This document shows, piece by piece, positions 1 through 48,953 of a DNA stretch of 64,000 bases. This DNA comes from Cyanobacteria bacterium P01_A01_bin.123. Its GTDB lineage: Bacteria; Cyanobacteriota; Cyanobacteriia; Phormidesmidales; Phormidesmidaceae. The translations under genes were made by a program, and so were the position numbers. The stretch is taken from contig JBCBZT010000034.1 of NCBI GenBank assembly GCA_039815185.1, forward strand, positions 25,863 through 89,862. The letters run 5' to 3'. Position 1 is the stretch's first letter. The number at the start of each line of letters is the position of its first letter. Below the pieces are notes generated by a model. It was given only the letters and a program-made list of their open reading frames with translations. It did not search any database and was not told the origin of the DNA.

Positions 1-130
1 TGGTAATCGTGTGACCGGCTCGCTTCAGTAAATCGCCAGCGACCAGTCCCGCCATTCCTGCGCCCACAATGATGATCTTTTTAGGACGGCTAGCGTTGGT
101 ATCTAGCCCGTTCTGAATCATTGATTGCAT
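1..130 (-). CDS. Flavin-dependent amine/L-amino-acid oxidase family protein, N-terminal part (runs off the window)
   Basis: Manual translation from ATG at 130: [43 protein letters not shown], with a GxGxxG FAD-binding motif. Not in the ORF track. Confidence 0.7.
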
Positions 131-165
131 TTTGGGTTGACTCCTAATCGTTTTGGATTTAAGGG

Positions 166-1197
166 TTACCAGTCATCAATCCCATCTCCTCCAGCAATCC
201 ATTCGTCTAAGTTGCGATCGCCCGTGGCCACATTAAACAGATGTAAGCCAAAATCCTTAGACAGGTCCTCACAGACCTTGATGCCCCGCACACTATTGCC
301 TTTAATGTCCAGCGGTGGCGAAAATGTGCCGATGCCCAATTTGCCGGGAACCACGGCTAAAATGCCGCCCCCCACGCCACTCTTGGCAGGCATACCAACC
401 CGGTAGGCCCACTCCCCTGAGGCGTCATACATGCCGCAAGTCAGCATCACACTGACGACATCTTGCACATAGCGTTCGTCGATCGCCCGTTCTTGAGTCA
501 CCGGATTGATACCACCATTGGCCAAAGTTGCCGATAGCATCGCCAGATCACGGGCATTGACCATGACTGAACATTGCTGAAAGTAGAGATCTAAGGTTTC
601 ATCAATTTTGTCGCCCACCATGCCAAAGTTGAGCATCAAATAGGCCATTGCCCGGTTACGATACCCCGTTGACTTTTCAGACAAAAAGACGGGCACATTG
701 ATATCGTGCTCTCGTCCGGTGAAGCGCTTAAACATTTCCAGCACCCGTTTAAGGCGCTCGGTGCCGTTTTTGCCCTTGATTAAATCAGCCGTTGCGATCG
801 CCCCCGCATTTACCATCGGATTGTAAGGACGGTTAGTGACCTCATCCAACACAATCGCGTTGAAGGCTTCGCCCGTGGGCTCCACGCTGACCTTGCTATT
901 AACATACTCACGCCCGTGATCTTCCAGGGCTAAGCCAAACACAAATGCTTTTGAAATGGACTGAATCGTAAAGAGTTGATCACACTCCCCCACCTCAAAC
1001 ACCTGACCATCGGCAGTCACAACGCAGATCCCGAACCATTCTGGCTTAGCGAGGGCGAGTTCAGGAATGTAGTCGGCAACGGTGCCGTCATCTAACGATC
1101 GATATTTTTCGTGTAGATCGTTCAAATAATTTCGAAAGGGCGAAGTAACCGCAGTAATCGAGTTGGCAAGGGACTGTAAATCTCCAAAATTGGACAT
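166..1197 (-). CDS. glsA: Glutaminase A (bacterial type)
   Basis: [18 protein letters not shown] (catalytic SxxK), [27 protein letters not shown] motifs. Confidence 0.95.
214..221. repeat. HIP1 octamer GCGATCGC (one representative copy of many)
   Basis: Further copies at 794, 4649, 4672 and throughout the window; a cyanobacterial hallmark. Confidence 0.9.
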
Positions 1198-1202
1198 CCT
1201 TT

Positions 1203-1961
1203 CTAACCCTCCGTAATCTGCTGGGCCACTTTACGAAACTCTTGACTCACTTCGTGTTCAGGATATTTCACACAAAATACGCCTTCACTGGCCAGCTGCA
1301 CCACATCTTCCGACAGCGGAAACACCCCTGCGACCTTCTCATGGTAGGTTTCCTCGACTTTCTGCTGGAGGGCATCCAGATTCAGTTTGCTGTGGGCTTT
1401 GTTGATCGTCAGCAGCATTTTGCGAACTTTCAGTTGCCGGGCCACATCCACCGTGACCGCTGTGCCCTGGTAATCCTGTTTGTCAGGACGCAAAATTAGG
1501 ATCAACACATGTGAAATGGCAATTGACAAAAAGGTTTCTTTCGAAAGGCCTGGATGGGTATCAATGAACAAATAGTCCAACTTGAGTGCCTTAACGAGGC
1601 TACGAAACCCATCGTTCATCAGCTTGACATCGTAGCCATCCTTGAGAATACGGGCGATGTCATCTGCCTTAACACTGGAAGGCACGAGATAAAGTTTGCC
1701 CTCGCCTTCGACGCCAACATTAGCACCGATGTCGTAGGCCGTATCTTCAATTGAACTTTCACCCCACAAGTAATTATTAAGGGTTTTGTGAGTGTGCTCT
1801 GGTTCCAGACCAAACAGATTGTGAATACCGGGTGAGGGCACATCTGTATCGACAACCCCGACACGATACCCCTGCAGTGCAACTGTGGTGGCTAAGTTTG
1901 CAGTAAAGTTAGATTTACCCGTACCGCCTCGGTAAGAGTGGATCGAAACAACTTTTGGCAT
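1203..1961 (-). CDS. MinD/ParA-family P-loop ATPase
   Basis: Deviant Walker A RGGTGKS, VVDTD, FIDTHPG; no obvious C-terminal MinD membrane-targeting helix. Confidence 0.88.
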
Positions 1962-2160
1962 TTCTGGGTTAATGGATGGGTAATGTGGAGAACTCTTTCA
2001 AGAAAATACCAGATAAAACCTGCTCTTAAAGAAAATGCCAAGGCGGATCTTTAAATGTAAGCACTCATTATCCATTTTTCTAGGGCAGGGATGTGACTCA
2101 CAGCCTCCCAAAAACTTGCTGACAAGCCCTCTATGACTAGATCTGCAATAACTCTAAATC

Positions 2161-4296
2161 TCATATCTGAGTAGAGCGTAGTGCCGCTCCCGAATAAGCT
2201 TCTGCTTGCTTGAGAGCCTTAACAATAGCATCGTGGCGATGACGCATAGCATCATCGAGTGGGGTAAAGCCCCAACGGTCTTGGACGTTGGGGTTGACCT
2301 GATTGGCCAGTAAAAACTCAATCACGTTGAGCTGTCCTTCTGCGGCGGCAAGGTGGATGGCGGTGCGACCATCATAGTCTGCTGCATCCATGGAAATTCC
2401 GCGGGCAATGTAGGGCAACATCGCATTCAGATTGCCCTGACTAGCAGCCCAGATTAGGGCTGTAACATCAGTGGTGACCGAACTGGGCAGTTTGATGTCG
2501 GCTTGGGGATAAGAATCTTGCCCTCTTTTTGCCCCGGCCTCTTGCAGAATGGCGGCAACAGCCTTGTGTCCCTGTTGTTCGGCATCATTCAGCGGTGTGC
2601 AACCCCAGCGGTCGGTGACATTTGCATTTGCACCGTGCTCTAACAGAAATTGCACCACATTTTTATGACCACCGGCAGCGGCCAAGTGTAGAGGCGTTCG
2701 ATTGTCATAGTCGCCGGCATTCATATCGGCTCCACGAATTTGGTACTGCGTTATGGCCGTCAGGTCGCCTCGGCTGGCCACTTCAATTAAGCTGGTAATT
2801 TCTTCTGATTCTCGCTGAATTGGGCTGACACGGGGGTTCTTTTTTTCTGACTGAAAATCGAGATTATCGTAGTTGTGGACGCTAAATTTTTGAACCAGCT
2901 GCTTACAGAATTCAACCCCGCGCACGCTGTTGCCTTGAACATCAAGATTAGGGGACCAAATACACAAGCCCAACACGTTAGGAATGACAACCATGACCGC
3001 TCCGGACACGCCGGATTTGGCCGGTAACCCCACCATAAAGGCCCATTCACCACTGTAGTCATACATGCCGCAGGAGTACATCAAAGACAGACAGTGTTGC
3101 ACCGTATTGGTTTTGAAAATCTTTTCGCCTGTAATCGGACAGGTGCCCCCATTGGCCATGGTGGCAGCCACCACAGACATTTGGTCAGCATTCAATTCAA
3201 TCGAACAGGACTGAAAATAGAACTCTAGGGTTTCTTCAAGCTCGGCCCAGGCAGGGAATGCTTTCGTTTCCATCATGTAGTGGCTGAGGGCACGGTTGCG
3301 ATGGGCCGTTTCTCGCTCAGATAAATACACGGCGTTGTTAAAAGTAATCCGATCATTGCCGGTGAGACGGCTCCAGTGATTGAGCACATAATCAAACCGA
3401 TCGGCATGGGGTAGATCATGGCGAATCAGAGAACAGCACATAATAGCCCCTGCGTTAATCATGGGATTATGGGGTAATCCTTTACTGTTCAATGTGAGTT
3501 CATTGAACCCTAAACCAGAAGGTTCTCGCCCGACGTGCTGATGAACCACTTCGGCGCCCAGTTCTTCCAAGGCGAGACAGTAGGCAATGGTTTTGCTGGT
3601 GCTTTGCACCGTAAAGTTTTCAAGGGTGTTGCCACGGGAGTAGCGCTGCCCGTCAATGGTACAGATGGCCACGGCAAAGTTTCGCTCATCGACCCTGGCG
3701 AGTTGAGGAATGTAGTTGGCGAGGGCACCCCCATCATGAACACTGACCGCTTCGTAAATCGTGTCGATGTCCTGGCAAAAATCTTGAAAATCGGGAATGA
3801 TTAGCTGGGCTTTGAGTACCCGACGGATCAGATGGATATTGGGACGAATGATTTTTTGAAAGTCATCAAAGTCAATTTCAGAGTCATGGCGGGGTGAAAG
3901 CAGACCTAATTCCTGCAGACTCTCAGAAAAGCGTAAATCGGAGAGCTTGAGTCCAGCGCGCACAAAAGTACTCAAAAACTCTTCGCGCGTGATTTTACCG
4001 TTACCATCTAGATCGGCAGCTTGGAATAGGCGAAGATCCTGTTCATCGACGGCTTTAGCTGCTGTCATAGCCCGGCCTAAAGTTGGGGGTTGAGTCGGCT
4101 TGGGTAGGGTCGATTTAGCATCCTTTTGAGGCCGAGCCTCAGGCATAGGCTTGTCGATGGCCTTGGTTTTGGTTTTGGTTTTAGTTTTTTGATCCATGGT
4201 ATTTAGCATCAGGTGACGACAGGGTGGCATTGACAGAAAGCTGCCTGATGGGGAATCGCTGGCAGCGCTAGCGTTAAAGCGATGAATAGTGGGCAT
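2161..4296 (-). CDS. glsA: Glutaminase with N-terminal EF-hand and C-terminal ankyrin repeats (animal GLS-like architecture); start may be ATG 4197
   Basis: DLDGNGKITREE EF-hand; QSTSK, NPMINAGAI, GMYDYSGEW, PAKSGVSG, HNYDNL; ankyrin motifs RTPLHLAA, DRWGCTPL, RTAIHLAA, DRWGFTPL. Confidence 0.92.
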   Translation of the reverse strand: MPTIHRFNASAASDSPSGSFLSMPPCRHLMLNTMDQKTKTKTKTKAIDKPMPEARPQKDAKSTLPKPTQPPTLGRAMTAAKAVDEQDLRLFQAADLDGNGKITREEFLSTFVRAGLKLSDLRFSESLQELGLLSPRHDSEIDFDDFQKIIRPNIHLIRRVLKAQLIIPDFQDFCQDIDTIYEAVSVHDGGALANYIPQLARVDERNFAVAICTIDGQRYSRGNTLENFTVQSTSKTIAYCLALEELGAEVVHQHVGREPSGLGFNELTLNSKGLPHNPMINAGAIMCCSLIRHDLPHADRFDYVLNHWSRLTGNDRITFNNAVYLSERETAHRNRALSHYMMETKAFPAWAELEETLEFYFQSCSIELNADQMSVVAATMANGGTCPITGEKIFKTNTVQHCLSLMYSCGMYDYSGEWAFMVGLPAKSGVSGAVMVVIPNVLGLCIWSPNLDVQGNSVRGVEFCKQLVQKFSVHNYDNLDFQSEKKNPRVSPIQRESEEITSLIEVASRGDLTAITQYQIRGADMNAGDYDNRTPLHLAAAGGHKNVVQFLLEHGANANVTDRWGCTPLNDAEQQGHKAVAAILQEAGAKRGQDSYPQADIKLPSSVTTDVTALIWAASQGNLNAMLPYIARGISMDAADYDGRTAIHLAAAEGQLNVIEFLLANQVNPNVQDRWGFTPLDDAMRHRHDAIVKALKQAEAYSGAALRSTQI

Positions 4297-4565
4297 CGCT
4301 GACGACTTCAGGCCGATCAGAGAGACTATTTGCTGTGGGGATAAGGCTACACATAAATTGGAAATAGGACTCGATCCCAGCAGACTTAGAAGCTCTCACG
4401 CTGGTGAGTTGGTCAAAGATAGGCTGGGTCAGAATGTTTCGAGCCCGCTGCCAGACCAGGACGCCCATCACTGCAGCAGAGCCCAACTGACCCCTAACAG
4501 CACCAACATCACTTTTGATTTGATCCTGAGCTGCCCCAGTCCTAACATTGCACATCACTCCAATA

Positions 4566-4598
4566 GAAGAAGAAGAAAAGGGGGCGCAGAATGCCCCC
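4566..4598 (-). terminator. Probable intrinsic terminator downstream of the accessory amt
   Basis: Minus strand reads GGGGGC-ATTCTGC-GCCCCC followed by TTTTCTTCTTCT. Confidence 0.55.
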
Positions 4599-4680
4599 AC
4601 AAGGAGTCTTGGCAAAAGCCAAGAAACGTTCAGAACCAAACCTTTGTGGCGATCGCCTTGGGCTAACTTTGGCGATCGCG

Positions 4681-6165
4681 CTACAATTTCGTCTCGATTT
4701 CAACGCTGGGTGCTTCGTCTGTCATTGAGAAGCCTGCGTAGGCAATCTGCCCATGCTCGTGGATATCGAGCCCCTCAATTTCCTCATAGCCATGGACACG
4801 GATGCCAATTGTTGCCTTCAATGCCATCCAGCAGATTAAGCCTGTGATGATCGTAAAGACACCATAAGCAAGCACCCCCAACAACTGCACGTTAAACTGC
4901 TGAACACCGGCATTCTCGCCAAAGATACCGACGGCCAAGGTAGCCCAGATACCGTTGCAGAGATGGACTGAAACAGCCCCTACCGGATCATCAATTTGTA
5001 GGGAATCAAAGAAATCAATCGCGAACACCACCAGTACACCTGAAACGCAGCCAATGATGATGGCTGATACAAACGACACCTGGTTGCAACTAGCAGTGAT
5101 ACCCACCAACCCTGCCAGAATGCCATTAATCACCATGCCTAAGTCTGGTTTTTTATTCTTGAACCAAGAGACAAAAGTAGCAATAGTCCCTCCAGCAGCA
5201 CCCGATAGGTTGGTTGTGATGGCAATATAAGCAATATTTTCATTAGCCGCCAACTCAGATCCAGGATTAAACCCAAACCAACCAATCCAGAGAATCAAAC
5301 AGCCTAGCGTGGCTAAACTGAGGTTATGGCCCGGAATTGGCTTCACGAGTTTGTCCTCATACTTGCCGTAGCGGGCACCCAGGACAATTGCCCCGACTAG
5401 GGCCGACCATCCTCCAACACTGTGCACCACCGTCGAGCCCGCAAAGTCGGCAAAACCTAAATTAGCTAACCAGCCGCCGCCCCAAGTCCATTTGCCCGAG
5501 ATGCAGTAAAAGGCGATATTAACCACACTAAAGATCAAAAAGGCGTCAAATCGAATCCGCTCAGCCACTGCTCCCGATACGATGGTGGCGGATGTCGCCG
5601 CAAAAGCCGCCTGAAACAGGAAGAAAATAGTAATTGGCAAACCTGCGGGGAAGGGATCCAAACCATAGGTGGCCGAGTCGCCCGACATAAAGAAACCCGT
5701 CAGGCCAATAAAGCTATTGCCCTGACCAAACATCAACCCAAAACCAATCGCCCAGTATGTGAGCAGGGCCAACCCAAATACAATTAGATTTTTAGAGAGG
5801 ATATTAACCGCGTTTTTCTGGCGGCACATCCCCACCTCTAACATGCCGAAGCCGGCATTCATAAAGACCACTAGGGTAGACGCCACCAAAATCCAAACCA
5901 CGTTGAGATATCCCTGCTGCAGCGCCACCTGCTCTGCCAGGGACTCTAGGGTGACATCATCCTGGGCAAACGTCACCGTAGATAAGCCGATGACAATCCA
6001 GGCTGAGACACAGAAAAACACCATGGTGCGGTGTCGAGTTACCCATCTCAATAACTGAGCTAAGGCATCGCGATAACGGGTATTAACTACCAAGGGAGGA
6101 CAACCATCTGTCTTCCCTTTGATTTGCTCGACATGACTAGACATTGTCACTCCTAATTCAAACAT
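4681..6165 (-). CDS. amt: Ammonium transporter (Amt family), accessory paralog
   Basis: [44 protein letters not shown]. Confidence 0.95.
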
Positions 6166-6706
6166 TGAGTTAGCCCCTGAAGAGGTGAAACCAGTAAACT
6201 CTGAACCTCACAATCAGCTAAACAGCTGAAAATCCAAAGTCATAAAGGCCACAAAAGATCAAGGCTATAGCCTCAGAAAAATGCAACTAAATCTTTCAAA
6301 TGAGTCGTCCAAACCCCATCAGATACTTTGTAGATACCCCATCACCTTTACTTAAAGAAGGTCATACCTGAAATCCTCTCACTTATTGCTCCAGAGACAG
6401 AGATTTCAGTAGAGTTAGCAAGTATTAAAACTCAGAAGTTCAACAAAAGTAAAGTCTGATTATTCGGTCAATTACCTTTAAACAAACTGAGTCAAGTATA
6501 AAGAGAAATAAATAATTCGGAATTGACTAAACTACTACAGTAAAAATGCGAACCAAAAAATGACCCATATTAGGACAAGAAACGTCTGACCTAGTTCACT
6601 CACAGGGCTCAGCTAAAGAAATTCAATCTAAGCACCTTGATTGAACATCTGCATGAGCTGCCTTTTACATCTGCCTCTATATTCAATCAAGACAATTGGG
6701 AAAAGC

Positions 6707-6727
6707 AAAGTCGGGAAAGTCGGAAAG
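6707..6727. promoter_or_regulatory. 9-bp-period direct repeat (GTCGGGAAA GTCGGAAAG) upstream of amt; candidate operator
   Basis: AAAGTCGG at 6707 and 6716; the same motif occurs inverted at 8517-8543. Confidence 0.45.
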
Positions 6728-6922
6728 CTGGTTTCATGACAATCTAATAAGGGTATAAAATCTTCATTTACTTTAAATATTCAATCCTTAATTTTTTCGC
6801 TCCCAAACAATCTCAAAAAGCCAGCATCTAAGATTTCACTGAAAACTCCGCACTAATTTCTGACTCTCAGTAGCTATATCTATCTTCAGCGAAATCCTGA
6901 GTCATTTGTTTTTTGATTCATA

Positions 6923-8281
6923 TCAGAAACTTTGAAAGCTCAGCTGTTGTTTAAAGTATGAACGATATACTTCACAACTCGATACAGCTTTGCAGCCTTG
7001 TATCTTGATTAGTCCAAGACTTTCTAATCGATACATTGTAACCGCATCCAGTTCTACACCTCCCTCGGTAGAAACGATTTGTTTAAGTGCAGTGGCTAGG
7101 TCGGGATCGCGTTTCAGCAGTGCCAAATAATTTCGTAGATGATCACCATAAATGCCAGATGGTGTGGAAGCCATTTTGATTAGATCTGCTGACTCTAAAT
7201 TTTGAGTCACGAGATGATAGAAAAACACATTCACTAAATAAGGGTGCCCACCCACTAAATCTACCAATTGTTGAGCACACGAACTATCAACCTGGTCTAA
7301 TCCATATCGAGCCGCTAATTCATAGACTTGAAGCGTTGTAAATCCAGGCAATTTGATCACTTGACCAATATTAAATGGAGATTGATGAATCTTTAAGGGA
7401 ACATAAATTTCAGTCGCATGGGCAATGACCAGGCGGAGATTGCGCCAACTCAGACTCCACTTCGCTTTTTCATGCCAGGAACGGAGCAATGGGAAAAAAT
7501 CTTGAGCGATCTTGGGATGTTCAATCAGGTCTTCAGCACCGGAAATAATCAGCACAATGGGGGTTCGAGTTCGCTCAAGAATGTGTGCTTGGTAGTAGAG
7601 TTCGCTACTGATTTTGTACCCCATTGATGAATCCCAATATTCTTCGAGCTTAGGGGGGATATTCAGTTCTTGACTCACCCGCAAACAAAACCATTGCAGA
7701 AACGTATCTATACTTGTGAATACAGCTTTATCAACGGTTTGCAAATCTAGATGGGCAGTTTGATAGCCCTGTTGTTCGGCAAATTGAATGAGCCGAAATA
7801 CCAGGGAAGTTTTTCCCATTTTTTGAGGGGCTTTGATGCGCAGAAAGCCGCCAGGACGTTGAATTTCTGAATAAGCTAAGTGTTCGTTGGGCGGGCGATC
7901 GATATACAGCGGCGAATAGGGCGACAACGGGCCAGACGGATACTGCAAATGGCTAGGGGGGGACACTGCGGTAACCGTTACAGGCACCTGTGGTTCGAGC
8001 GTTAGACTTGGGCTAGTCATCAGAGGGGATGACTGTAAACGCTCTCGGAGGACAAAGAGCAAACTCTTTTTGGTAACACGTTGTCCCAGGGCTTGGGAAA
8101 TCTCTCGCCATAGCTTATAGCCCGTGTCCTTGAGGTGGGCATCCCCATAACCTGAGTGTTGCGCCATTTGGTCATAGGTCTGCTTGTTCCAACTTTGCCC
8201 GAGCACAATCCGCTCCGCAGGGCTAAGCTGCCGCTTGAGAAACCGTTCTTCAATTGTCAGCAGAACTTGATCGGGATCCAT
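6923..8281 (-). CDS. N-terminal HTH plus AAA_35-like P-loop protein (putative transcription regulator)
   Basis: HTH-like N-terminus LSPAERIVL..TYDQMA..GYKLWREISQALG; Walker A APQKMGKTSL; SPFNIG; GGHPYL; Walker B degenerate (LIISGAED). Confidence 0.8.
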   Translation of the reverse strand: MDPDQVLLTIEERFLKRQLSPAERIVLGQSWNKQTYDQMAQHSGYGDAHLKDTGYKLWREISQALGQRVTKKSLLFVLRERLQSSPLMTSPSLTLEPQVPVTVTAVSPPSHLQYPSGPLSPYSPLYIDRPPNEHLAYSEIQRPGGFLRIKAPQKMGKTSLVFRLIQFAEQQGYQTAHLDLQTVDKAVFTSIDTFLQWFCLRVSQELNIPPKLEEYWDSSMGYKISSELYYQAHILERTRTPIVLIISGAEDLIEHPKIAQDFFPLLRSWHEKAKWSLSWRNLRLVIAHATEIYVPLKIHQSPFNIGQVIKLPGFTTLQVYELAARYGLDQVDSSCAQQLVDLVGGHPYLVNVFFYHLVTQNLESADLIKMASTPSGIYGDHLRNYLALLKRDPDLATALKQIVSTEGGVELDAVTMYRLESLGLIKIQGCKAVSSCEVYRSYFKQQLSFQSF

Positions 8282-8516
8282 ACGTTCATATGCTGGTTTT
8301 AATAACTCAAGTTTTCAGAAGAAATTCTTCTATATCTGCGGCTAAAAATAGTATCAAAAATCACACAATGTTATCTAGTAGGTGGCTGTAATGCCTTGAA
8401 GTACAACCCATCAGCTTTCCTGATTAGCCCAAGACCAGGAGAACTCCGGGAAATCACTTATTACTTTCTCACACAATTTTAGAAGGAGGCATCACACAAG
8501 TTTTCACTTTCTGCCT

Positions 8517-8543
8517 TTCTCCGTCTTTTCCGTCTTTTCCGAC
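8517..8543. promoter_or_regulatory. Three 9-bp direct repeats upstream of the HTH-AAA gene; candidate operator
   Basis: TTCTCCGTC TTTTCCGTC TTTTCCGAC in tandem. Confidence 0.5.
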
Positions 8544-8681
8544 CTATCTTTCAGTAGATGAGTTCATGTTTTGAAACGAATTTCCCTGAAAATCAATGCA
8601 AACGATTAAAACACATCTAATATTTAGGCACAGGGGGCTTCACCCTTCTTTACTTATCCACAAAAGATCTTTTGGCTACCG

Positions 8682-11600
8682 TCAATCTTCTGATAAGCCA
8701 TCACAGAGGGTGCGATCGCCCTCTGCTACCTCGACATTCGTGCGTAAATAATCTGCCACCCAATCGCAAGCATAGTTCAGCTCATTTAAAGACAGGATCT
8801 CCTCTAAATTCCAAAGGGTGAGGGTGCCATCTTCAGTGACCGTTATCAGCTCGCCTCTGTTGCTAAATTTCACACTCCTGAAGCCAGCCCCATGTCCATA
8901 GAGGGTTTTGAGTTTATCTCCATCCAGAGACCACAAAATAACGGTGTTATCACCACTGGCAGTGGCCAGCATTTGTCCATCAGCACTAAAATCCACCCCA
9001 AAAATACCCGTGGTGTGTCCTTCAAAGGTGCTGACCAAGGTGCCATCCCATCGCCATAATTTGGCTGTTCGATCGGCACTGGCCGAGGCAAAAAACTGAC
9101 CGTCCGGACTTACCGATAGCCCAAAAATATCTGAATCGTGGGCTTCAATCCTATGCCGACGGGTACCATCAGCATCCCAAATCTGAACAGTCCCATCCGA
9201 TCCTGATGAGACAAAGCTTTGATCGTCGGGGCTAAACGCCACACGATAGATCCGCCCATTATGCCCATCAAGGGTATGTATGAGTTCTCCCTCGACCGTC
9301 CAAATTCGGATGGTTCCATCTTCTGCCCCCGCCACCACGCGTTGATTGTCAGCGCTAAAGGCAGCATCCCAAATTTGGAGTTGATGCCCCTCTAAATCCC
9401 GCAGAAAACGCCCCTCCTGGGTCCAAAGTTTAAGGGTGCCGTTGTGTCCAGTCGTCGCCATCATTTGACCATCTGGGCTGAAGTCAAATCCAAACAGGAT
9501 CTCGTCCGTTTGTAGTGTGGCAACGATGTTCCGCTCCTTGTCCCAGATATGAACCATCGTGCTATCGCCAGAAATAATCCGGTCACCTTGAGGACTGATG
9601 GCCAGATCCCAAATCTCATCATTTAGAAAGATGGTTTTGAGCAGTGATGTTTCCCACTGCCTGAGCTGCGCTGTATTGCGAGTGCCGGTCATCACGATGG
9701 ATTGAACATCGGTGGGAGAAAAGCTGAGTTCGCGGATATCTCCTGGGGTTTGAAGGATGCGCCAAGGGTTTCCATCTTTTCCCCAAATCCAAAGGGTTTT
9801 ATCTAGACCTGCGGAGGCGATCGCAGTTCCATCAGCCGCAAATGCCACGTCTTCAACCCGCTTTGTGTGCCCCGTCAGGGTTGTGATGGGGGCCCCATCA
9901 AGCTGCCAGAGCTGTACCACTTGACCGTCGCCGCCAGTGGCCACTAAGTTTCCTGTAGTGCTAAAGGCCACACTCCAAAGACTGCCACCTTCGAGGGCTC
10001 CCGGTAATGTCCCTAGGAGTTGACCATCGGGAGTCCAGACTTTGGCAGTATTATCCAGACTCGCCGAAGCGATGGTTTGATCCACTGGACTCACGGCGAC
10101 TTGCCAAACCATGCTTTGATGCCCCGACAACGTTGTGAGCAAAGTCCCGTCTAGATTCCATACCTTAGCCTGCTGATCGGCGCCACCTGAGACTAAAAAT
10201 TCTCCCATGGGGCTAAAGGCTAAAGTCCAGGCAGCTCCTTCATGGGCCTGGATCGTTTGCACCAATGTTTTTGATTCAAGATTCCAAATTTGTAAGCTAC
10301 CGTCCAAATTGGTTGCCGCTAGCAAGGGACGTTGGGGATGAAACGCGACACCAAAGGTGGTGGCATTACCGGCAAAGGTGTGGAGGAGTTGGCCGTTCTT
10401 AGCCCAGAGCTTGACGGTTTGATCGCCACTAGCGGTCGCAATTAATTCTCCATCCGGGCTGTAGGCGACCCCCAAAACGTGTCCTTCATGGCCTGACAAC
10501 CGATTCCGTTCACTCATCCAATAGACAATCTGGTTGAGGGCACGATCTGCCGCCGCTTCTAACTGCGGATCAGGCTGCTCAAGATCCTGGAGCCGGCGCT
10601 TCGCTTTGATGGCATCAACTAGGGCCTCTAATTCTTGGTGGGAGGCAAACCGCCCTTCTGCCGATGAGATCAGGGCTCGAATTTCATTCAAGCGAGAGGT
10701 CTGTTCACTGGCGATCGCTCGACGATATTGGCGAAAAGCCACTAGACCCAATAAGGACACGATCACTAACGCACCTGAGATCATTCCCAGAAGAATTCGC
10801 TGTAGACGAGTGGTGCGTCTAGCCGCTTGGGCCTTCTCTAAATCCAGCGACTTCTGAATTTCAGCCTGTTCTTGCTCTTGACCCAGAGACAAAAATCGAT
10901 AGTCTAAGTCGCTCAGGCTTTTGCCCCGAGCCCAGGCTTGGGCGTCCCGTAATGCCTGTCCCCGCAGCAATCGCGATTCATCCACTTGCTGTGAGCCTAC
11001 CCAGGCATTAAACATTTCCGAGTAAGGACGTAGGGCGCCCAACTGGCGCTGCACCCAATCTAGATCAAATACGTTTTCATAAATGCGGTTTTTAACCCGG
11101 AGATAGCCCCCTTGCTGCACCATCAGACCGCTAAGCAGTAGCTCTATTTGGTCCCGACTATCGTCGGTAGCGATGGTTTGCCCCTCTAGCCAGCGTTGAT
11201 AGAGGCCCAATAAACGTCCCGTACGGCGGTCATCGTAGAGCAACCGATCGCGAATCGTGCGCAAATGCTCGGGCTCATCTTGGGATTCCCAGTGATCAAT
11301 GATCTGCGATCGCACCACACTTTCCACCCAGAATCGCTCCATCCCAGGGGGTACACTCAGCGGCTCATTGATCGCGGTTTGGCTAGAGACAACCAATAAC
11401 TGGCAGACCTTTTGAATGAGAAACGGTTGGCCCCCCGTCCAATTCAACACTTCTTGCAAAATGGCGGCAGTGTTTGGGGTTTGAATCTGCAAGCCATGGG
11501 CTAAAGGAGCTGCTGCTTCGAGGCTAACCCCACTCAGCACAATGGCCCGACCAATATTAAACGGGGTGCGTTGTTTATCGGCAATTAAATCTGTCGGGGT

Positions 11601-12149
11601 CGCGACCCCAAAGATGGCAAAGGTCAGGCGTTTGTAGTCTGGTTCGACGGCTCGCCGGTTGTAGCAAAAGCGGATTAGCGCAAAGAAGTCATCTACTGAA
11701 AAGGGCAGGTTGAGCAGACTATCTACTTCATCGATAAAGATAAACAGCCGTTGGTCAGAGCACTGAGTTAGAACTGTTTCAATAAACTGACTCAAAATCT
11801 GAGTCAAAGAAAGATGACTTCGCGCCTCCCACCAATCGCGAATATCAAGGGTTGTTAACAAATCAAGCTGTAGTGCCAGGGTGGCCATTAAGCCCCGATA
11901 CCATTGTTCCGGCGTGATCTGGTCACTGCCAATGTTGGTGACATCGACGACTGCACAGCGATGCCCCTCGGCCTGGAGTCGATGCCAACTGCGCACCATC
12001 AGCGATGATTTGCCCATTTGGCGGGAATTGAAAACGTAGCAAAACTCCCCTGCTAATAGCGCTGTGTAGAGGTCTCTATCGGCTTGACGTTCAATATAGG
12101 TTGGGGCGTTGTAGTCGAGACTGCCACCAATTTGGTAATAGTTGGCCAT
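8682..12149 (-). CDS. AAA_35-like ATPase, hydrophobic helix and WD40-repeat protein
   Basis: YQIGGSL, SRQMGKSS, IFIDEVD, TPFNIG, WTGGQPFL; hydrophobic ILLGMISGALVIVSLLGLVAF; about 14 GH..W repeats. Confidence 0.9.
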   Translation of the reverse strand: MANYYQIGGSLDYNAPTYIERQADRDLYTALLAGEFCYVFNSRQMGKSSLMVRSWHRLQAEGHRCAVVDVTNIGSDQITPEQWYRGLMATLALQLDLLTTLDIRDWWEARSHLSLTQILSQFIETVLTQCSDQRLFIFIDEVDSLLNLPFSVDDFFALIRFCYNRRAVEPDYKRLTFAIFGVATPTDLIADKQRTPFNIGRAIVLSGVSLEAAAPLAHGLQIQTPNTAAILQEVLNWTGGQPFLIQKVCQLLVVSSQTAINEPLSVPPGMERFWVESVVRSQIIDHWESQDEPEHLRTIRDRLLYDDRRTGRLLGLYQRWLEGQTIATDDSRDQIELLLSGLMVQQGGYLRVKNRIYENVFDLDWVQRQLGALRPYSEMFNAWVGSQQVDESRLLRGQALRDAQAWARGKSLSDLDYRFLSLGQEQEQAEIQKSLDLEKAQAARRTTRLQRILLGMISGALVIVSLLGLVAFRQYRRAIASEQTSRLNEIRALISSAEGRFASHQELEALVDAIKAKRRLQDLEQPDPQLEAAADRALNQIVYWMSERNRLSGHEGHVLGVAYSPDGELIATASGDQTVKLWAKNGQLLHTFAGNATTFGVAFHPQRPLLAATNLDGSLQIWNLESKTLVQTIQAHEGAAWTLAFSPMGEFLVSGGADQQAKVWNLDGTLLTTLSGHQSMVWQVAVSPVDQTIASASLDNTAKVWTPDGQLLGTLPGALEGGSLWSVAFSTTGNLVATGGDGQVVQLWQLDGAPITTLTGHTKRVEDVAFAADGTAIASAGLDKTLWIWGKDGNPWRILQTPGDIRELSFSPTDVQSIVMTGTRNTAQLRQWETSLLKTIFLNDEIWDLAISPQGDRIISGDSTMVHIWDKERNIVATLQTDEILFGFDFSPDGQMMATTGHNGTLKLWTQEGRFLRDLEGHQLQIWDAAFSADNQRVVAGAEDGTIRIWTVEGELIHTLDGHNGRIYRVAFSPDDQSFVSSGSDGTVQIWDADGTRRHRIEAHDSDIFGLSVSPDGQFFASASADRTAKLWRWDGTLVSTFEGHTTGIFGVDFSADGQMLATASGDNTVILWSLDGDKLKTLYGHGAGFRSVKFSNRGELITVTEDGTLTLWNLEEILSLNELNYACDWVADYLRTNVEVAEGDRTLCDGLSED

Positions 12150-12393
12150 CGTTGCAATCGCGGCTGGATCGGGACAATATTGCCACGTATAACCTCTACA
12201 ATAGGTCTGTTTTGGACAAGATTTGAAGCTTGGTCACCATCGGATTTTGCAAGCCAGTGTTATGGAGGTAGCGCCTGGATTAGCTGATCTATCCTTTCCA
12301 TACTGATGGGCTCTAAAAGTTTGCGTGTTTATTGATTTTCTTCTGGCATGATCAATACCGTAGCCATCAATCTATAAGCGGGGCGTAGCGAAC

Positions 12394-13800
12394 ATGCTTT
12401 GTCCAGAAGCGTTATTGCAAATGAAACCCTTCCAGGCTTTGCCCCTTGAACGGTTGGATTGGATCTGCGATCGCGTTGAACACATCCAGCTCGTCCCTGG
12501 TGAAGTCCTTGTCCGTGAAGGCGAACCGACCAAAGGCTTTTTTATTCAGCTCAGCGGCCACATCACCGTCAGTCGAAGCGGTAACGGTGCTGATATACCT
12601 GTGGGTCGCCACCAAAGCCCCTCATTCTTTGGCGAAGTCCAAGCCCTGACCGAAGATTTGGTCCCCGTTACCCTGACCGCTGATATCGAGACTGACCTCT
12701 ACCGCCTCAACTGTTGCGATTTCCTCGATTTGCTCCACGGCTGCCGCGAGTTCGAAAAAGATATCTTCCGTACCGTGAGCAAACGGCTGCGGGGGCTGGA
12801 GTCTTTCATTCACACTCGAGAAAAAATGGCCGCCTTAGGGACGCTTTCTGCTGGATTGGCCCACGAACTCAATAATCCTGCCGCTGCCCTCGTGCGGGCG
12901 CTCAAAGATCTCAAACCTGCCATGCTTGAACTGCAGCGCATGAATCTGGTATATGGCCAGCAGCAGGTGGATGAGGCCCATACAGACCAGTGGGAAATGC
13001 TGCGCGACCAAGGTTTTGCAGCCATAGACCACCCCAAAAACGACCCGTTAGCCCAAGGCGATCGCGAAGATGCCCTCACAGATTGGTTAGAAGACTATGG
13101 TGTGGCAGAAGCCTGGAAGCTGGCCGAACCCCTAGCCGCTGGCGAGATTGAACCAGCCGCCCTAGACGCAATCATGTCTCGTTGGCGCAATGACCCCACT
13201 GAACTGCGAGACATGGGTCTACGCTGGCTGGCCCTTTCTTTTGATGTGATGGGCATGATCCGCAACGGATTGGATGGTGCCGAGCGCATCTCTACACTAG
13301 TGCAGTCGATGAAGTCTTATTCCTACATGGATCGGGCTGCCCAGCAACAGATCAACATCCACGACGGCATCGAAGATACGCTACGCCTGTTTGCTTTTAA
13401 GCTGAAGCATGGCGTCAAAGTCGAGCGCCACTACGACCCAGATCTTCCAGAGATCATGGCCTTTGGTAGCGAATTAAACCAGGTCTGGACGAATCTGATC
13501 GGCAACGCCATTGACGCTCTCAACGAAGGCACCCCGGATGGTGCACCCCCACAGATTGTGATTCGCACATGTCAAAAGGGGGGGCGCCTACGCGTTGAGA
13601 TCGAAGACAACGGCCCTGGCATTCCCCCCGAGGTACAAAATCGTATTTTGGAACCCTTTTTTACCACCAAACCCATGGGTAAAGGCTCTGGTCTTGGGCT
13701 CGACATAGCGCGGCGAATCGTGGACAACCGCCATAGCGGCAGCTTAATGGTCGAATCGGTACCTGGGAAAACTTGCTTCGCAGTGTTGTTGCCCCTGTAG
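12394..13800 (+). CDS. Cyclic-nucleotide-binding-domain sensor histidine kinase
   Basis: N-terminal cNMP-like domain (LVREGE..FFGE); H-box AHELNNP; NLIGNAIDA, DNGPGI, GSGLGL. Confidence 0.9.
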   Translation: MLCPEALLQMKPFQALPLERLDWICDRVEHIQLVPGEVLVREGEPTKGFFIQLSGHITVSRSGNGADIPVGRHQSPSFFGEVQALTEDLVPVTLTADIETDLYRLNCCDFLDLLHGCREFEKDIFRTVSKRLRGLESFIHTREKMAALGTLSAGLAHELNNPAAALVRALKDLKPAMLELQRMNLVYGQQQVDEAHTDQWEMLRDQGFAAIDHPKNDPLAQGDREDALTDWLEDYGVAEAWKLAEPLAAGEIEPAALDAIMSRWRNDPTELRDMGLRWLALSFDVMGMIRNGLDGAERISTLVQSMKSYSYMDRAAQQQINIHDGIEDTLRLFAFKLKHGVKVERHYDPDLPEIMAFGSELNQVWTNLIGNAIDALNEGTPDGAPPQIVIRTCQKGGRLRVEIEDNGPGIPPEVQNRILEPFFTTKPMGKGSGLGLDIARRIVDNRHSGSLMVESVPGKTCFAVLLPL

Positions 13801-13825
13801 AGGATGGGGGATGGGGGCAATCACC

Positions 13826-14503
13826 CTACTGATTAATCTTGAGACGGTATCCCATCCCTCTGACTGTCTCGATATAGTCGCTGCCCAGCTTTCTGCGCAA
13901 GTGTCTAATGTAAACTTCGATGATGTTGGAACCGGGGTCATAGTCATAGCCCCAAACCCGGTTCAGCAGTTGTTCTTTACTCATCACCTGCATGGGGTGT
14001 CTCAGCAGAACCTCCGCCAGCACAAACTCACGCGCTGATAGCTCAACGCCGCGATTGGCCACCCAGGCCTGCCGAGTGATTAAATCCAGGGTCAACTCAC
14101 CGACTCTCAGCAAGGTCTCTGATTGGCGGGGTTGGTTGCCGGGGCGATCGCGCAGTTGCACTTTAATCCGAGCCAGTAGCTCCTCAAAGCGAAAGGGTTT
14201 GGTCATGTAGTCATTAGCTCCCCCCTCCAACGCCGTGACAGTATCGTCTATGCCGTCACGGGCCGTCAGCACAATGACTGGCAGTAGATCTCCCTGCCCG
14301 CGCAACTCGTTCAACACGGCTAAGCCATCTTTGCCGGGAAGCCCCAAATCCAAAATCATCAGGTCAAAGTCTGCGCTGCGGGCTAGCTGGGCAGCTTGAT
14401 GGCCATCCTCAACCACCAGCGTGGTAAAACCGTGTGCTTTGAGCCCCGTTTTCAAAAAGTCAGTGATGTGAGGATTGTCTTCGGCGATGAGGATGCGATT
14501 CAT
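13826..14503 (-). CDS. OmpR-family response regulator
   Basis: AED, LDLGLPG, LTA, KPF and winged-helix ETVRGMGY. Confidence 0.93.
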   Translation of the reverse strand: MNRILIAEDNPHITDFLKTGLKAHGFTTLVVEDGHQAAQLARSADFDLMILDLGLPGKDGLAVLNELRGQGDLLPVIVLTARDGIDDTVTALEGGANDYMTKPFRFEELLARIKVQLRDRPGNQPRQSETLLRVGELTLDLITRQAWVANRGVELSAREFVLAEVLLRHPMQVMSKEQLLNRVWGYDYDPGSNIIEVYIRHLRRKLGSDYIETVRGMGYRLKINQ

Positions 14504-47489: not shown

Positions 47490-48953
47490 ATGTCTAACTT
47501 AGCGTTATTGAGAAAACGGAGATCTAGAAGGCGGCAATCCTCCTTTTGGAACTCAAACGTACCGCCAATCAGTGAGGCAGTCCAAAGCTTCTTTGGAAAA
47601 AACTCTTGGAGTTGGTTGGTTTGTATTCCTCTGGCTTTAGTGGTGGTCGGCGTATGGGGGCTTGCAGCCCATGCCCAAGATGACGCGTTGACCCCTGAAA
47701 ATGTTCAGCAAGTCTTGGACAACATTTGGATTACCATTGCAGCTGTGCTCGTTATTTTCATGAATGCGGGCTTTGGCATGCTGGAGACTGGGTTTTGCCG
47801 CCAAAAAAACGCAGTCAATATTTTGTCCAAAAACTTGATTGTGTTTGCCCTGGCGACCTTATCGTATTGGGCTATCGGCTTCTCCCTAATGTATGGGGCT
47901 GCCGGTAACGGTTTCATCGGTGGGGGCGGCTGGTTTTTGAGCAGCGCTGATCCCACAACTTACGGTTTAGAAGACGGTGCGGGCTTAACCATCCCGGTTT
48001 CTTTCTTGTTCCAGGTTGCTTTTGCCGCAACAGCGGCCACGATCGTTTCCGGTGCCGTGGCTGAGCGAATTAAGTTCATTGACTTTATTATTTTCAGTGT
48101 GCTGCTCACCGGAATTTCTTACCCAATCACAGGTCACTGGGTCTGGGCTGGCGGCTGGTTGAGTGAAATGGGCTTTTCCGACTTTGCGGGTTCTACAGTG
48201 GTTCACTCTGTAGGGGGTTGGGCTGCGCTGATGGGTGCCGCAATTTTGGGGCCCCGTATTGGTAAGTACCAGGATGGTCGAGTCAACGCGATTCCGGGTC
48301 ACAGCATGACAGCAGCAATGCTGGGTTGCTTGATTCTCTGGATCGGCTGGTTTGGCTTCAACCCTGGTTCTGAGTTGGCTGCTAGCTTGGCGGTGCCTTA
48401 TATCGCAGTGACCACCAACTTGGCGGCGGCGGCGGGTGGCGTTGCCGCGACCTTCACGGCTTGGATCATTAGTGGTAAGCCTGACCTATCCATGATCATT
48501 AATGGTATTTTGGCCGGTCTGGTTGGAATTACGGCAGGTTGTGCTGGCGTTGGCTATTGGGGCGCAGTGATCATCGGCTTAATTGCTGGGGTGATTGTTG
48601 TGTTCTCAGTTTCTCTCTTCGACAGCATTAAGATTGACGACCCGGTTGGTGCCATTTCTGTACACCTAGTGTGCGGCATCTGGGGTACCTTAGCTGTTGG
48701 GCTTTTCGACCTCGAGTTGGGTCTGTTCTTCACGGGTAGCGTCGCTCAGTTCGGTATCCAAATTGTCGGCATTCTGGCGATTGGTGCGTTTACCGTTGTC
48801 TTTAGCGGTGTGGTCTGGATGATACTCAAGACTGTGCTCGGCTTGCGCGTTGATCCAGAAGAGGAGATGAAAGGTCTGGATATCAGCGAACACGGCATGG
48901 AAGCTTACAGTGGTTTCCTCAAGGACACCAGCGACATGGGCACGATGTCCTAA
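47490..48953 (+). CDS. amt1: Ammonium transporter Amt1
   Basis: [55 protein letters not shown] 47490 preferred. Confidence 0.95.

Follow-up and report, generated by a model that had tools for sequence, protein, structure and literature searches.

The analysed window, a stretch of 64,000 nucleotides from Cyanobacteria bacterium P01_A01_bin.123 (GenBank assembly GCA_039815185.1, contig JBCBZT010000034.1, positions 25,863 to 89,862), contains two neighbouring genes, here called A (encoding the protein P0001) and B (encoding P0002), whose products both match the Pfam family AAA_35. The best explanation of this pair, to which we assign a probability of about 0.55, is a switch that leads from the membrane to transcription and at least regulates itself; B would be the sensor and A the DNA-binding output subunit, and together they would resemble a MalT protein split over two polypeptides. 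Judged from sequence comparisons, A and B represent one instance of a conserved two-gene module of cyanobacteria, made from two sister subfamilies of AAA_35, which are of the class of signal transduction ATPases with numerous domains (STAND), and their adjacency is not a chance neighbourhood. An earlier reading of the bare sequence (the original prediction) had proposed a sensor and a regulator made of homologous P-loop proteins. Both open reading frames (ORFs) were recovered exactly where it had placed them, co-oriented on the minus strand, and all the motifs it quoted are present (YIER/YIDR, MGKSS/MGKTS, PFNIG, GGQP/GGHP, IFIDEVD, and IISGAED).

P0001 matches AAA_35 with 422.9 bits over residues 114-445, which covers profile positions 1-331. 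The match of P0002 to the same model (PF14516) is partial, with 104.5 bits over residues 9-255 and profile positions 4-246. Both are above the gathering cut-off of 27 bits, which bears out the family named in the original prediction. The NTPase (nucleoside triphosphatase) modules of the two proteins are also homologous to each other, with 23% identity over 246 amino acids (E 3e-11). NCBIfam contained no family for A and gave only sub-threshold matches for B. The AlphaFold2 (AF2) model of A has a mean predicted local distance difference test score (pLDDT) of 89.5, and its best matches in the PDB are the archaeal proteins SSO1545 (2fna, E 8e-9) and PABY2304 (2qen, E 3e-8), with CED-4, Avs3, Avs4, Cdc6/ORC, NRC4, MalT (8bob), and Apaf-1 among the further matches. 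According to this model A is of the STAND class, with a P-loop NTPase followed by helical and winged-helix domains in the manner of Apaf-1, CED-4, MalT, and the nucleotide-binding leucine-rich repeat proteins (NLRs). A itself carries neither an enzymatic effector nor a sensor domain.

The Walker A motif of A is kept while its Walker B motif is degenerate, as the original prediction had noted, and S247-G248 align to the Asp-Glu pair of the five paralogues of A (A-types) in the same genome. When A was compared with 173 genomes of the same order, an orthologue group was found at 66-80% identity, the next best match being at 45%. Twenty loci of this group were fetched, coming from 19 genomes and five genera of one family; two of them are apparently identical to loci L022 and L026 of the wider survey described below. 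Counting A itself, the Walker B Glu is missing in all 21 members and the Asp in 20, while the GKT of Walker A is kept in 21 of 21. The loss in every member argues for a stable, selected state rather than decay. Since Walker A is retained and the Walker B Glu is absent from the whole group, A is, by its motifs, an inactive-type member of the STAND class, as are the published iSTAND forms.

B keeps both motifs that mark a STAND-type NTPase, a Walker A with GKS and a Walker B with IFIDE. Its hydrophobic helix, also foreseen earlier, is the only strongly hydrophobic segment of P0002 by hydropathy, and a comparable segment is found in 77 of 90 long B-type proteins. Behind it the WD40 model gives 364.8 bits over 12 stretches, and many other β-propeller models match as well. 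From its length, the region has room for some 14 blades with about 41 residues each, or roughly two seven-bladed propellers, an estimate that comes from no tool count. CHASE2, an extracytoplasmic sensor domain, occupies the position of the helix in 9 of 41 sampled B-types. The WD40 region of B is thus probably outside the cytoplasm and facing the periplasm, because the helix is more basic on its N-terminal than on its C-terminal side, the NTPase needs cytoplasmic nucleotide, CHASE2 takes the same position elsewhere, and the B proteins with a GAF domain have no helix.

The genome of the studied organism (8.09 Mb in 133 contigs) gives 12 matches to AAA_35 over the cut-off, six strong ones of 406-508 bits, which are the A-types, and six weak ones of 75-108 bits, which are the B-types. 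Five of the six A-types adjoin a B-type. In the studied window (contig C119) the N-terminal HTH (helix-turn-helix) of A is paired with the WD40 region of B. The other pairs combine caspase and TIR on A with TPR on B (C99), a TIR-like domain with GAF (C32), a C-terminal GGDEF with WD40 (C131), and an N-domain like that of A with a WD40 protein of 1257 aa and an extra short B of 382 aa (C35). The A-type on C107, which also has an N-domain like that of A, is alone; about 3 kb from it (L019:999-4400) lies a gene for a 1134-aa protein with an SpvB/TcdB middle region, as in Tc toxins. Both A and B of the studied pair have their nearest paralogue in the C131 pair, and pairs therefore seem to duplicate and diverge as units.

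For the wider survey a profile of the B NTPase was compared with a genome collection. Of 611 candidate stretches 584 were confirmed, and the best 79 loci were kept, all but one of them cyanobacterial. Hidden Markov models (HMMs) trained on the six A-type and the six B-type paralogues told the two types cleanly apart. An A was found in 53 of the 79 loci, and among the 55 that have at least 2.5 kb of flank on either side it was found in 40, 30 of which are simple A>B arrangements. The A-B junction is 150 bp or shorter in 35 of 56 cases, and in 11 the genes overlap. The divergence of the partners is correlated, with a Mantel r of 0.878 over 52 pairs that none of 1000 permutations reached, although the figure is inflated by related species.

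The two subfamilies also differ in what they carry. Most of the 53 A proteins are 430-490 aa long and consist of an N-domain of 100-140 aa and the AAA_35 module, while other outputs are GGDEF (four proteins), TIR (five), CHAT (one), trypsin with TIR (one), and cyclase with TIR (one). In the C-terminal parts of 41 sampled B proteins out of 91 were found WD40, CHASE2 (nine), GAF, GUN4, CHAT, trypsin, or nothing recognisable, and TPR is added by the studied genome. Three B modules form the end of giant proteins of 1880-2050 aa with Ser/Thr kinase, AAA_16, and GAF domains (L069:5465-11110, L076:4952-11101, and L092:5249-11098); in L076 an A-type gene is found upstream of the giant gene.

When it comes to the catalytic motifs, B-types have GK[ST] in 97 of 97 and the Walker B DE in 95 of 97. 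The 58 scored A-types read DE in 24 cases, NE in 22, DD in seven, SG, SA or GA in three, DR in one, and SE in one; the SG/SA/GA trio consists of A and its two orthologues in the scored set. The NE proteins, with Asn in place of Asp, are those of L020, L025, L027-L033, L035, L037, L039, L040, L042, L045, L048, L049, L053, L062, L067, L068, and L098. Where their domains were seen, they have a short N-domain or GGDEF, while the A-types with TIR or protease domains are DE, as judged by reading of the sequences. For the sensor-output relay of the original prediction, the conserved pairing and the division of motifs thus speak in its favour, while the hetero-oligomerisation that it supposed stays an inference.

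The N-terminal domain is the most conserved part of A, being near-invariant among A and its 20 orthologues, and the presumed recognition helix GDAHLKDTGYKLWR is invariant. A Pfam scan of residues 1-95 gave no family at E≤1, using a copy of Pfam in which the model PF26355 (HTH_VMAP-M9) was absent. This family is listed in the precomputed Pfam annotation of a protein 100% identical to P0001 and of 33 relatives, and it is found in 98-100% of the members of the nearest Atlas clusters with scores of 0.91-0.93. The Atlas describes it as 'vWA-MoxR associated protein N-terminal HTH'. The AF2 model of the domain (pLDDT 81.5) has five helices. Foldseek gave a best E of 0.7, while the 50 best VIA-align matches have middling Z values of 5.0-6.8 and a root mean square deviation of 2-3 Å over 56-68 residues. 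They are dominated by LuxR/NarL-type proteins (RcsB, NarL, TraR, VqmA, EvgA, GerE, DosR) and by region 4 of sigma-70 factors (SigF). The model Sigma70_r4_2 matches five of 43 scanned N-domains of A-types, with a best E of 0.0017, that of P0001 not being among them. Because the Z values are middling, a LuxR- or sigma-4-like HTH fold is consistent with the model rather than proven, and to this extent the N-terminal HTH of the original prediction is upheld. Short A-types also have a second, unrelated class of N-domain that is matched by Cro/C1-type HTH models at or above the cut-off, and an HTH output therefore seems to be recurrent among AAA_35 A-types. Some A-types of 620-680 aa (L016:8795-10843 on C32 of the same genome, L085, L089, and L097) also have, by eye, an N-domain resembling that of A in front of a domain that is TIR or TIR-like, so that a domain of the HTH_VMAP-M9 type would occur in effector-bearing forms as well.

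An alignment of the spacers between B and A and between A and amt from nine loci, the window and eight orthologous ones, displayed an invariant tandem of two to three copies of (G)GAAAAGWC upstream of A and the reverse complement downstream of it. In the window the upstream site consists of two copies of GGAAAAGAC and a degenerate third, and the downstream site reads AAAGTCGGGAAAGTC; both are candidate operators. The pattern AAAG[AT]CGG[AG]AAAG[AT]C has exactly two matches in the genome of 8,086,883 bp, and these are the two sites flanking A (window 8523 and 6707). Allowing two mismatches or fewer, the window contains five matches compared to 1.0 expected. The repeat is found upstream of A in 20 of the 20 fetched loci, and inverted downstream with at most one mismatch in 13; four of the remaining loci have a split variant of the downstream repeat in the alignment. 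It accompanies A regardless of the neighbours, including in L115 and L116, where B is missing. In five related genomes the pattern has 18 matches, of which 11 are at A orthologues, two are found just after detached B,B orthologues, and five are singletons, while a reversed control pattern gives three matches. The singletons, at a topoisomerase gene, a DUF3352 gene, a tetrapyrrole methylase gene, a lipase-like gene, and an ORF without a family match, were treated as chance in view of the three control matches. A match with one mismatch at window position 48171 was likewise set aside, as it is inside an ORF.

Long-range RNA pairing of the upstream and downstream copies was also considered and rejected, since the variable W positions are uncompensated and are both identical in only two of 14 loci by reading. 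The lack of co-variation makes a site for a protein more likely than pairing as an RNA duplex. The obvious candidate for the binding protein would be the invariant HTH that is encoded between the two sites.

Inverted repeats at both ends of a gene could also be the ends of a relic mobile cassette carrying A, and thus recombination sites instead of operators. The unit of repeat, A, and repeat is relocated in L115 and L116, and repeat copies have been left beside the B genes in L119. At the latter locus (G349:C11:2284000-2295000) two sense copies of the 9-bp repeat come after two B orthologues and there is no A, which is found, with flanking repeats of its own, about 0.9 Mb away in the same genome; its neighbours there are a cyanobactin cluster (PatG/YcaO) on one side and a gene for an amine oxidase on the other. 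However, there are only one or two copies per genome, they are at syntenic sites, no transposase or recombinase domain is found in A or the adjoining genes, and the repeats are intact across five genera. We consider this the least probable of the alternatives, with hardly more than a slight chance of being right.

In the switch that we propose, a signal would reach the propeller of B and drive a nucleotide-dependent assembly of this protein. A, being unable to cycle alone, would then be recruited through its homologous NTPase-helical-winged-helix module, and the recruitment would shift its occupancy of the tandem repeats (GGAAAAGWC) on either side of its gene. The switch would thus act on transcription, with autoregulation of A as the best-supported target. 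The gene that follows A, which is amt at the studied locus and codes for an amine oxidase, a glutaminase, or an MscS-type channel in relatives, might also be controlled. The contact between A and B, the binding of A to DNA, and the target genes are all inferred. When residues 1-400 of B and 108-452 of A were submitted to complex prediction the scores were 0.53, 0.55, and 0.50, and one unrelated control scored 0.35, values that weigh neither in favour of binding nor against it.

Several observations weigh against this switch, and some of them concern the pairing. At the studied locus A and B are uncoupled, with a spacer of 400 bp, and in 15 of the 55 loci with sufficient flanks an A is absent within 10 kb of the B gene. 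In two related genomes (L115 and L116) the A orthologue is without a B for at least 8 kb around, and in one such genome the two B genes are found about 0.9 Mb from it. The paralogues might thus be merely adjacent and act separately, each as a homo-oligomeric STAND protein, as would also suit the lone A and lone B genes that exist and the unlinked orthologues. This is improbable when the module is seen as a whole. B or B,B is directly upstream of A on the same strand in 17 of the 20 orthologous loci, one being cut by a contig end, and in general the partners consistently come one from each subfamily and not both from the same one. At 11 junctions the stop codon of one gene overlaps the start codon of the other, the divergence of the partners is correlated (r 0.878), and sensors are found on B and outputs on A. 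Furthermore, A has no sensor domain and, as predicted from the motif, no working Walker B.

The remaining points against the switch concern its output. The match of the HTH fold is middling (Z below 7; Foldseek E of at least 0.7), and a simple tandem-repeat screen upstream of 15 other A genes with a class-1 HTH found no shared or similar pattern. A terminator-like hairpin follows the downstream repeat and precedes the next gene in nine of 21 loci, which places this repeat within the transcription unit of A itself and not in the next promoter. The hairpins, with a T-run, are found 194-420 nt after the stop codon of A in L104, L105, L106, L108, L109, L112, L115, L116, and L117; by reading of the sequences, their arms have changed from locus to locus with the pairing preserved. 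In the window, the corresponding stretch (about 6540-6590) gave no convincing hairpin fold (z 0.58). According to the accessible part of Kaur et al. (2020; PMC7159879), PF26355 derives from VMAP-M, which are variable, non-enzymatic, and possibly invader-sensing modules of conflict systems. The similar N-domain that precedes a TIR-like domain in a paralogue further implies that the HTH need not be the sole output.

The pair might instead be an anti-phage or programmed-death system, like its paralogues with TIR, caspase, or trypsin. In it the HTH would only autoregulate the cassette or be an adaptor or sensing module, the real output would be elsewhere, and the nitrogen genes would be bystanders. 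Paralogous A-types from the same genome and elsewhere bear caspase with TIR, TIR, CHAT, and trypsin with TIR, and the N-domain family is named for the VMAP proteins of predicted conflict systems. The repeats bracketing A, with a hairpin behind the downstream copy in nine of 21 loci, are as expected of a self-contained autoregulated cassette, and the unit of repeat, A, and repeat is found in a different context in L115 and L116. In the portion of Kaur et al. (2021; PMC8195603) that was available, the MNS clade is placed among the NTPases of predicted counter-invader systems. On the other hand, PADLOC-DB 2.0.0 has no match to either NTPase module; A matched no family in it, and B matched only HEAT-ARM_XIII over its WD40 region. 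A is without an enzymatic effector, many A-types bear GGDEF, which is a signalling output, and the surroundings are no variable defence island but consist of metabolic and signalling genes whose synteny is stable over five genera. A sensor that faces the periplasm would also suit environmental sensing better than the detection of phage proteins inside the cell. A conflict role is thus rather unlikely, although it is far from negligible and clearly more probable than separate action of the two proteins.

The original prediction had A driving the neighbouring nitrogen genes. In a stronger form of the switch, A would be the dedicated regulator of an ammonium/glutamine island (amt, amine oxidase, glutaminases, cyclase, and a channel gated by cyclic nucleoside monophosphates, cNMP), with the propeller sensing a nitrogen cue. 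In the 20 orthologous loci the gene after A is amt in eight, an amine oxidase gene in three (followed by amt or ParA-glutaminase), the EF-hand-glutaminase-ankyrin gene in one, an MscS-type channel gene in two, CbiJ in one, and an unidentified ORF of 297 aa in one, while four are unreadable. An ammonia-related gene thus directly follows A in 12 of 16 readable loci, in at least four different arrangements, and homologues of the glutaminase and ParA-like genes are found near A orthologues in several arrangements. In L114, L099, L107, L115, and L116 the distance from the inverted repeat to the next gene downstream is 110-245 nt, and L116 has a third copy about 240 nt upstream of ParA-glutaminase. 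A canonical NtcA box (GTAN8TAC) is absent from the intergenic regions at the studied locus.

However, the orthologues all come from one family, and the synteny may be inherited. In loci of the amt type 500-1000 nt separate the repeat from the start codon of amt, and in several a terminator-like hairpin follows it. Only two of the 79 survey loci adjoin amt, and both are orthologues of the studied locus. Downstream of A are an MscS-type gene and then a non-ribosomal peptide synthetase gene in two orthologous loci, and CbiJ in one. Because of the one-family synteny, the distance of the repeat, the hairpins, and the restriction of amt adjacency to orthologues, autoregulation is regarded as supported while control of amt and glutaminase is doubtful, though still somewhat more plausible than a conflict role. 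Of the earlier claim, the ammonia-related neighbours and the repeat between A and the next gene thus stand in its favour, and the step from them to a driven set of nitrogen genes is tentative.

A broader reading, held just as tentatively as the nitrogen link, is that the AAA_35 pairs provide cyanobacteria with a general kinase-free chassis for transmembrane signalling. A STAND receptor with an extracytoplasmic sensor (WD40, TPR, or CHASE2) would template the assembly of output subunits, whose own ATPase activity may be dispensable. The domain fused to the output subunit would decide the result, being transcription for HTH, c-di-GMP for GGDEF, and cell death for TIR or caspase. The studied copy would be the transcriptional one, tied to the ammonium/glutamine island through a private 9-bp operator.

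The features of the locus are given in Table 1. The EF-hand-glutaminase-ankyrin protein has 711 aa, an unusual architecture, and 77-87% identity in relatives. Between its gene and amt there is an ORF of 121 aa (4274-4639, minus strand) that matches only the first 46-75 residues of dCache-adenylate/guanylate cyclases of 740-757 aa. In orthologous loci such a dCache cyclase gene is found after amt, together with a gene for an MscS channel with a cNMP-binding domain. From this comparison the cyclase and channel genes appear to have been deleted in the studied window, with the 121-aa ORF as a remnant. On the other side, a gene diverging from B (12394-13800, plus strand) encodes a histidine-kinase-like protein with cNMP-binding and HATPase_c domains and no match to HisKA. 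This protein, with the cyclase and the cNMP-gated channel of the relatives, hints at an island of cyclic-nucleotide signalling around amt. Rfam gave one sub-threshold match over window positions 1-14000 (PtaRNA1, with 24.3 bits where the gathering score is 47) and no riboswitch upstream of amt.

Table 1. Genes, domains, motifs, and candidate operator sites at the A/B locus, numbered from the first nucleotide of the window.
Feature	Position	Strand	Remarks
Gene A (P0001, 452 aa), HTH and full AAA_35 NTPase-helical-winged-helix module; proposed output subunit	6923..8281	-	ORF, Pfam, model
A, N-terminal HTH, residues 1-85	8027..8281	-	helices 3-15, 21-30, 36-43, 47-65, 74-84
A, Walker A MGKTS, residues 155-159	7805..7819	-	kept
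A, degenerate Walker B strand IVLIISGAED, residues 242-251	7529..7558	-	S247-G248 in place of D-E
Tandem 9-bp direct repeats, candidate operator	8523..8546	-	242 nt before A start codon
Inverted repeat copy	6707..6721	+	202 nt after A stop codon, ~540 nt before amt start codon
Gene B (P0002, 1155 aa); proposed sensor subunit	8682..12149	-	ORF, Pfam, B-type HMM separation from A-type
B, NTPase module, residues 1-400	10950..12149	-	alignment A1: G46 K47 D140 E141 invariant
B, Walker A MGKSS, residues 45-49	12003-12017	-	
B, Walker B IFIDEVD, residues 137-143	11721-11741	-	intact
B, predicted transmembrane helix, residues 452-472	10734..10796	-	Kyte-Doolittle mean 2.62 over 19 aa
B, WD40 region, residues ~545-1125	8775..10517	-	12 WD40 stretches and β-propeller models
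Ammonium transporter gene (amt), next downstream of A	4681..6165	-	Pfam Ammonium_transp 388.6 bits
EF-hand-glutaminase-ankyrin gene	2161-4296	-	Pfam
ParA-like gene	1203-1961	-	Pfam
Glutaminase gene	166-1197	-	Pfam

STAND and NLR proteins are mostly understood as single-chain cytosolic sensors. The A/B pairs would be a two-gene form of wide occurrence, the same switch module being found in a receptor in the membrane and in an output subunit that is separate from it. In the HTH variant the output is readable. Its candidate operator is short, conserved, and found nowhere else in the genome, and the hypothesis can thus be tested without knowing the ligand. A would also be a naturally occurring example of a STAND partner that is obligately inactive, which bears on how nucleotide hydrolysis is divided between paired NLRs. 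If the link to amt and glutaminase is true, the pair would be an NtcA-independent input to cyanobacterial nitrogen control.

Parts of this picture are already in print. The NTPases of the STAND class and the family PF26355 are published, as is the idea of a STAND operon of two genes in which the effector is borne by an eroded partner. The original prediction of an undescribed system must be narrowed by these. The literature searched held no description of an AAA_35 sensor/output pair, of the form with a membrane sensor, or of the HTH variant with its repeats, though Leipe et al. (2004) or the supplements of Kaur et al. may name the family or the pair. The closest published operon is that of nSTAND2, where two paralogous STAND NTPases are predicted to form a hetero-multimer and the motif-eroded partner bears a variable output domain (Kaur, Iyer, Burroughs, and Aravind, eLife 2021; PMC8195603). 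As in the A/B pair, paralogous NTPase genes are conserved as neighbours and the eroded one is the bearer of the output. nSTAND2 is, however, another STAND family, described as nearer to the CR-ATPases and S29/Dap3. It has GT4 or HEPN as outputs, and the consulted part of that paper describes neither a membrane sensor nor an HTH. In contrast to nSTAND2, most A-types keep D or N together with E at Walker B, the full loss being particular to the studied orthologue group.

The accessible text of the same paper, citing Leipe et al. (2004), also lists an 'MNS clade (Npun2340/2341 family)' of STAND NTPases among those of predicted conflict systems. The name consists of two consecutive Nostoc gene numbers, which suggests that a pair was seen, and no text was found that treats the two genes as sensor and output. 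SSO1545, the best structural match of A, is a founding member of this clade, and AAA_35 may be the Npun2340/2341 family.

The VMAP proteins of the vWA-MoxR ternary systems share the N-domain family PF26355 with A, as far as the available part of the source goes (Kaur et al., eLife 2020; PMC7159879). The vWA, MoxR, and VMAP-C components of these systems are absent at the studied locus, where the NTPase partner is AAA_35. The antiviral Avs and bNACHT proteins have the STAND fold in common with A, as seen from the Avs3 and Avs4 matches, and paralogous A-types bear TIR or protease effectors. They differ from the pair in being single-chain cytosolic sensors, and no PADLOC model matches the NTPase module of A or B.

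An analogy in organisation is found among eukaryotes. In the paired and helper NLRs of plants, and in NAIP/NLRC4 of animals, one STAND protein senses and a paralogue executes by co-assembly. Structures of NRC resistosomes are among the matches of the A model. Unlike the A/B pair, these systems are cytosolic and cause cell death, and they have neither a membrane-spanning sensor nor a transcription factor as partner.

When it comes to the output, a precedent is MalT, a transcription factor of the STAND class and the activator of the maltose regulon in Escherichia coli. MalT oligomerises in response to nucleotide and ligand, and binds short asymmetric boxes that are repeated. It combines a STAND NTPase module with a LuxR-type HTH, as A would with its putative LuxR- or sigma-4-like domain, and it is found among the structural matches of the A model. 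MalT is a single polypeptide with its own sensor repeats and a C-terminal HTH. In the A/B pair the sensor is on a separate protein, predicted to be in the membrane, the HTH is N-terminal, and the putative DNA-binding subunit has lost its Walker B motif.

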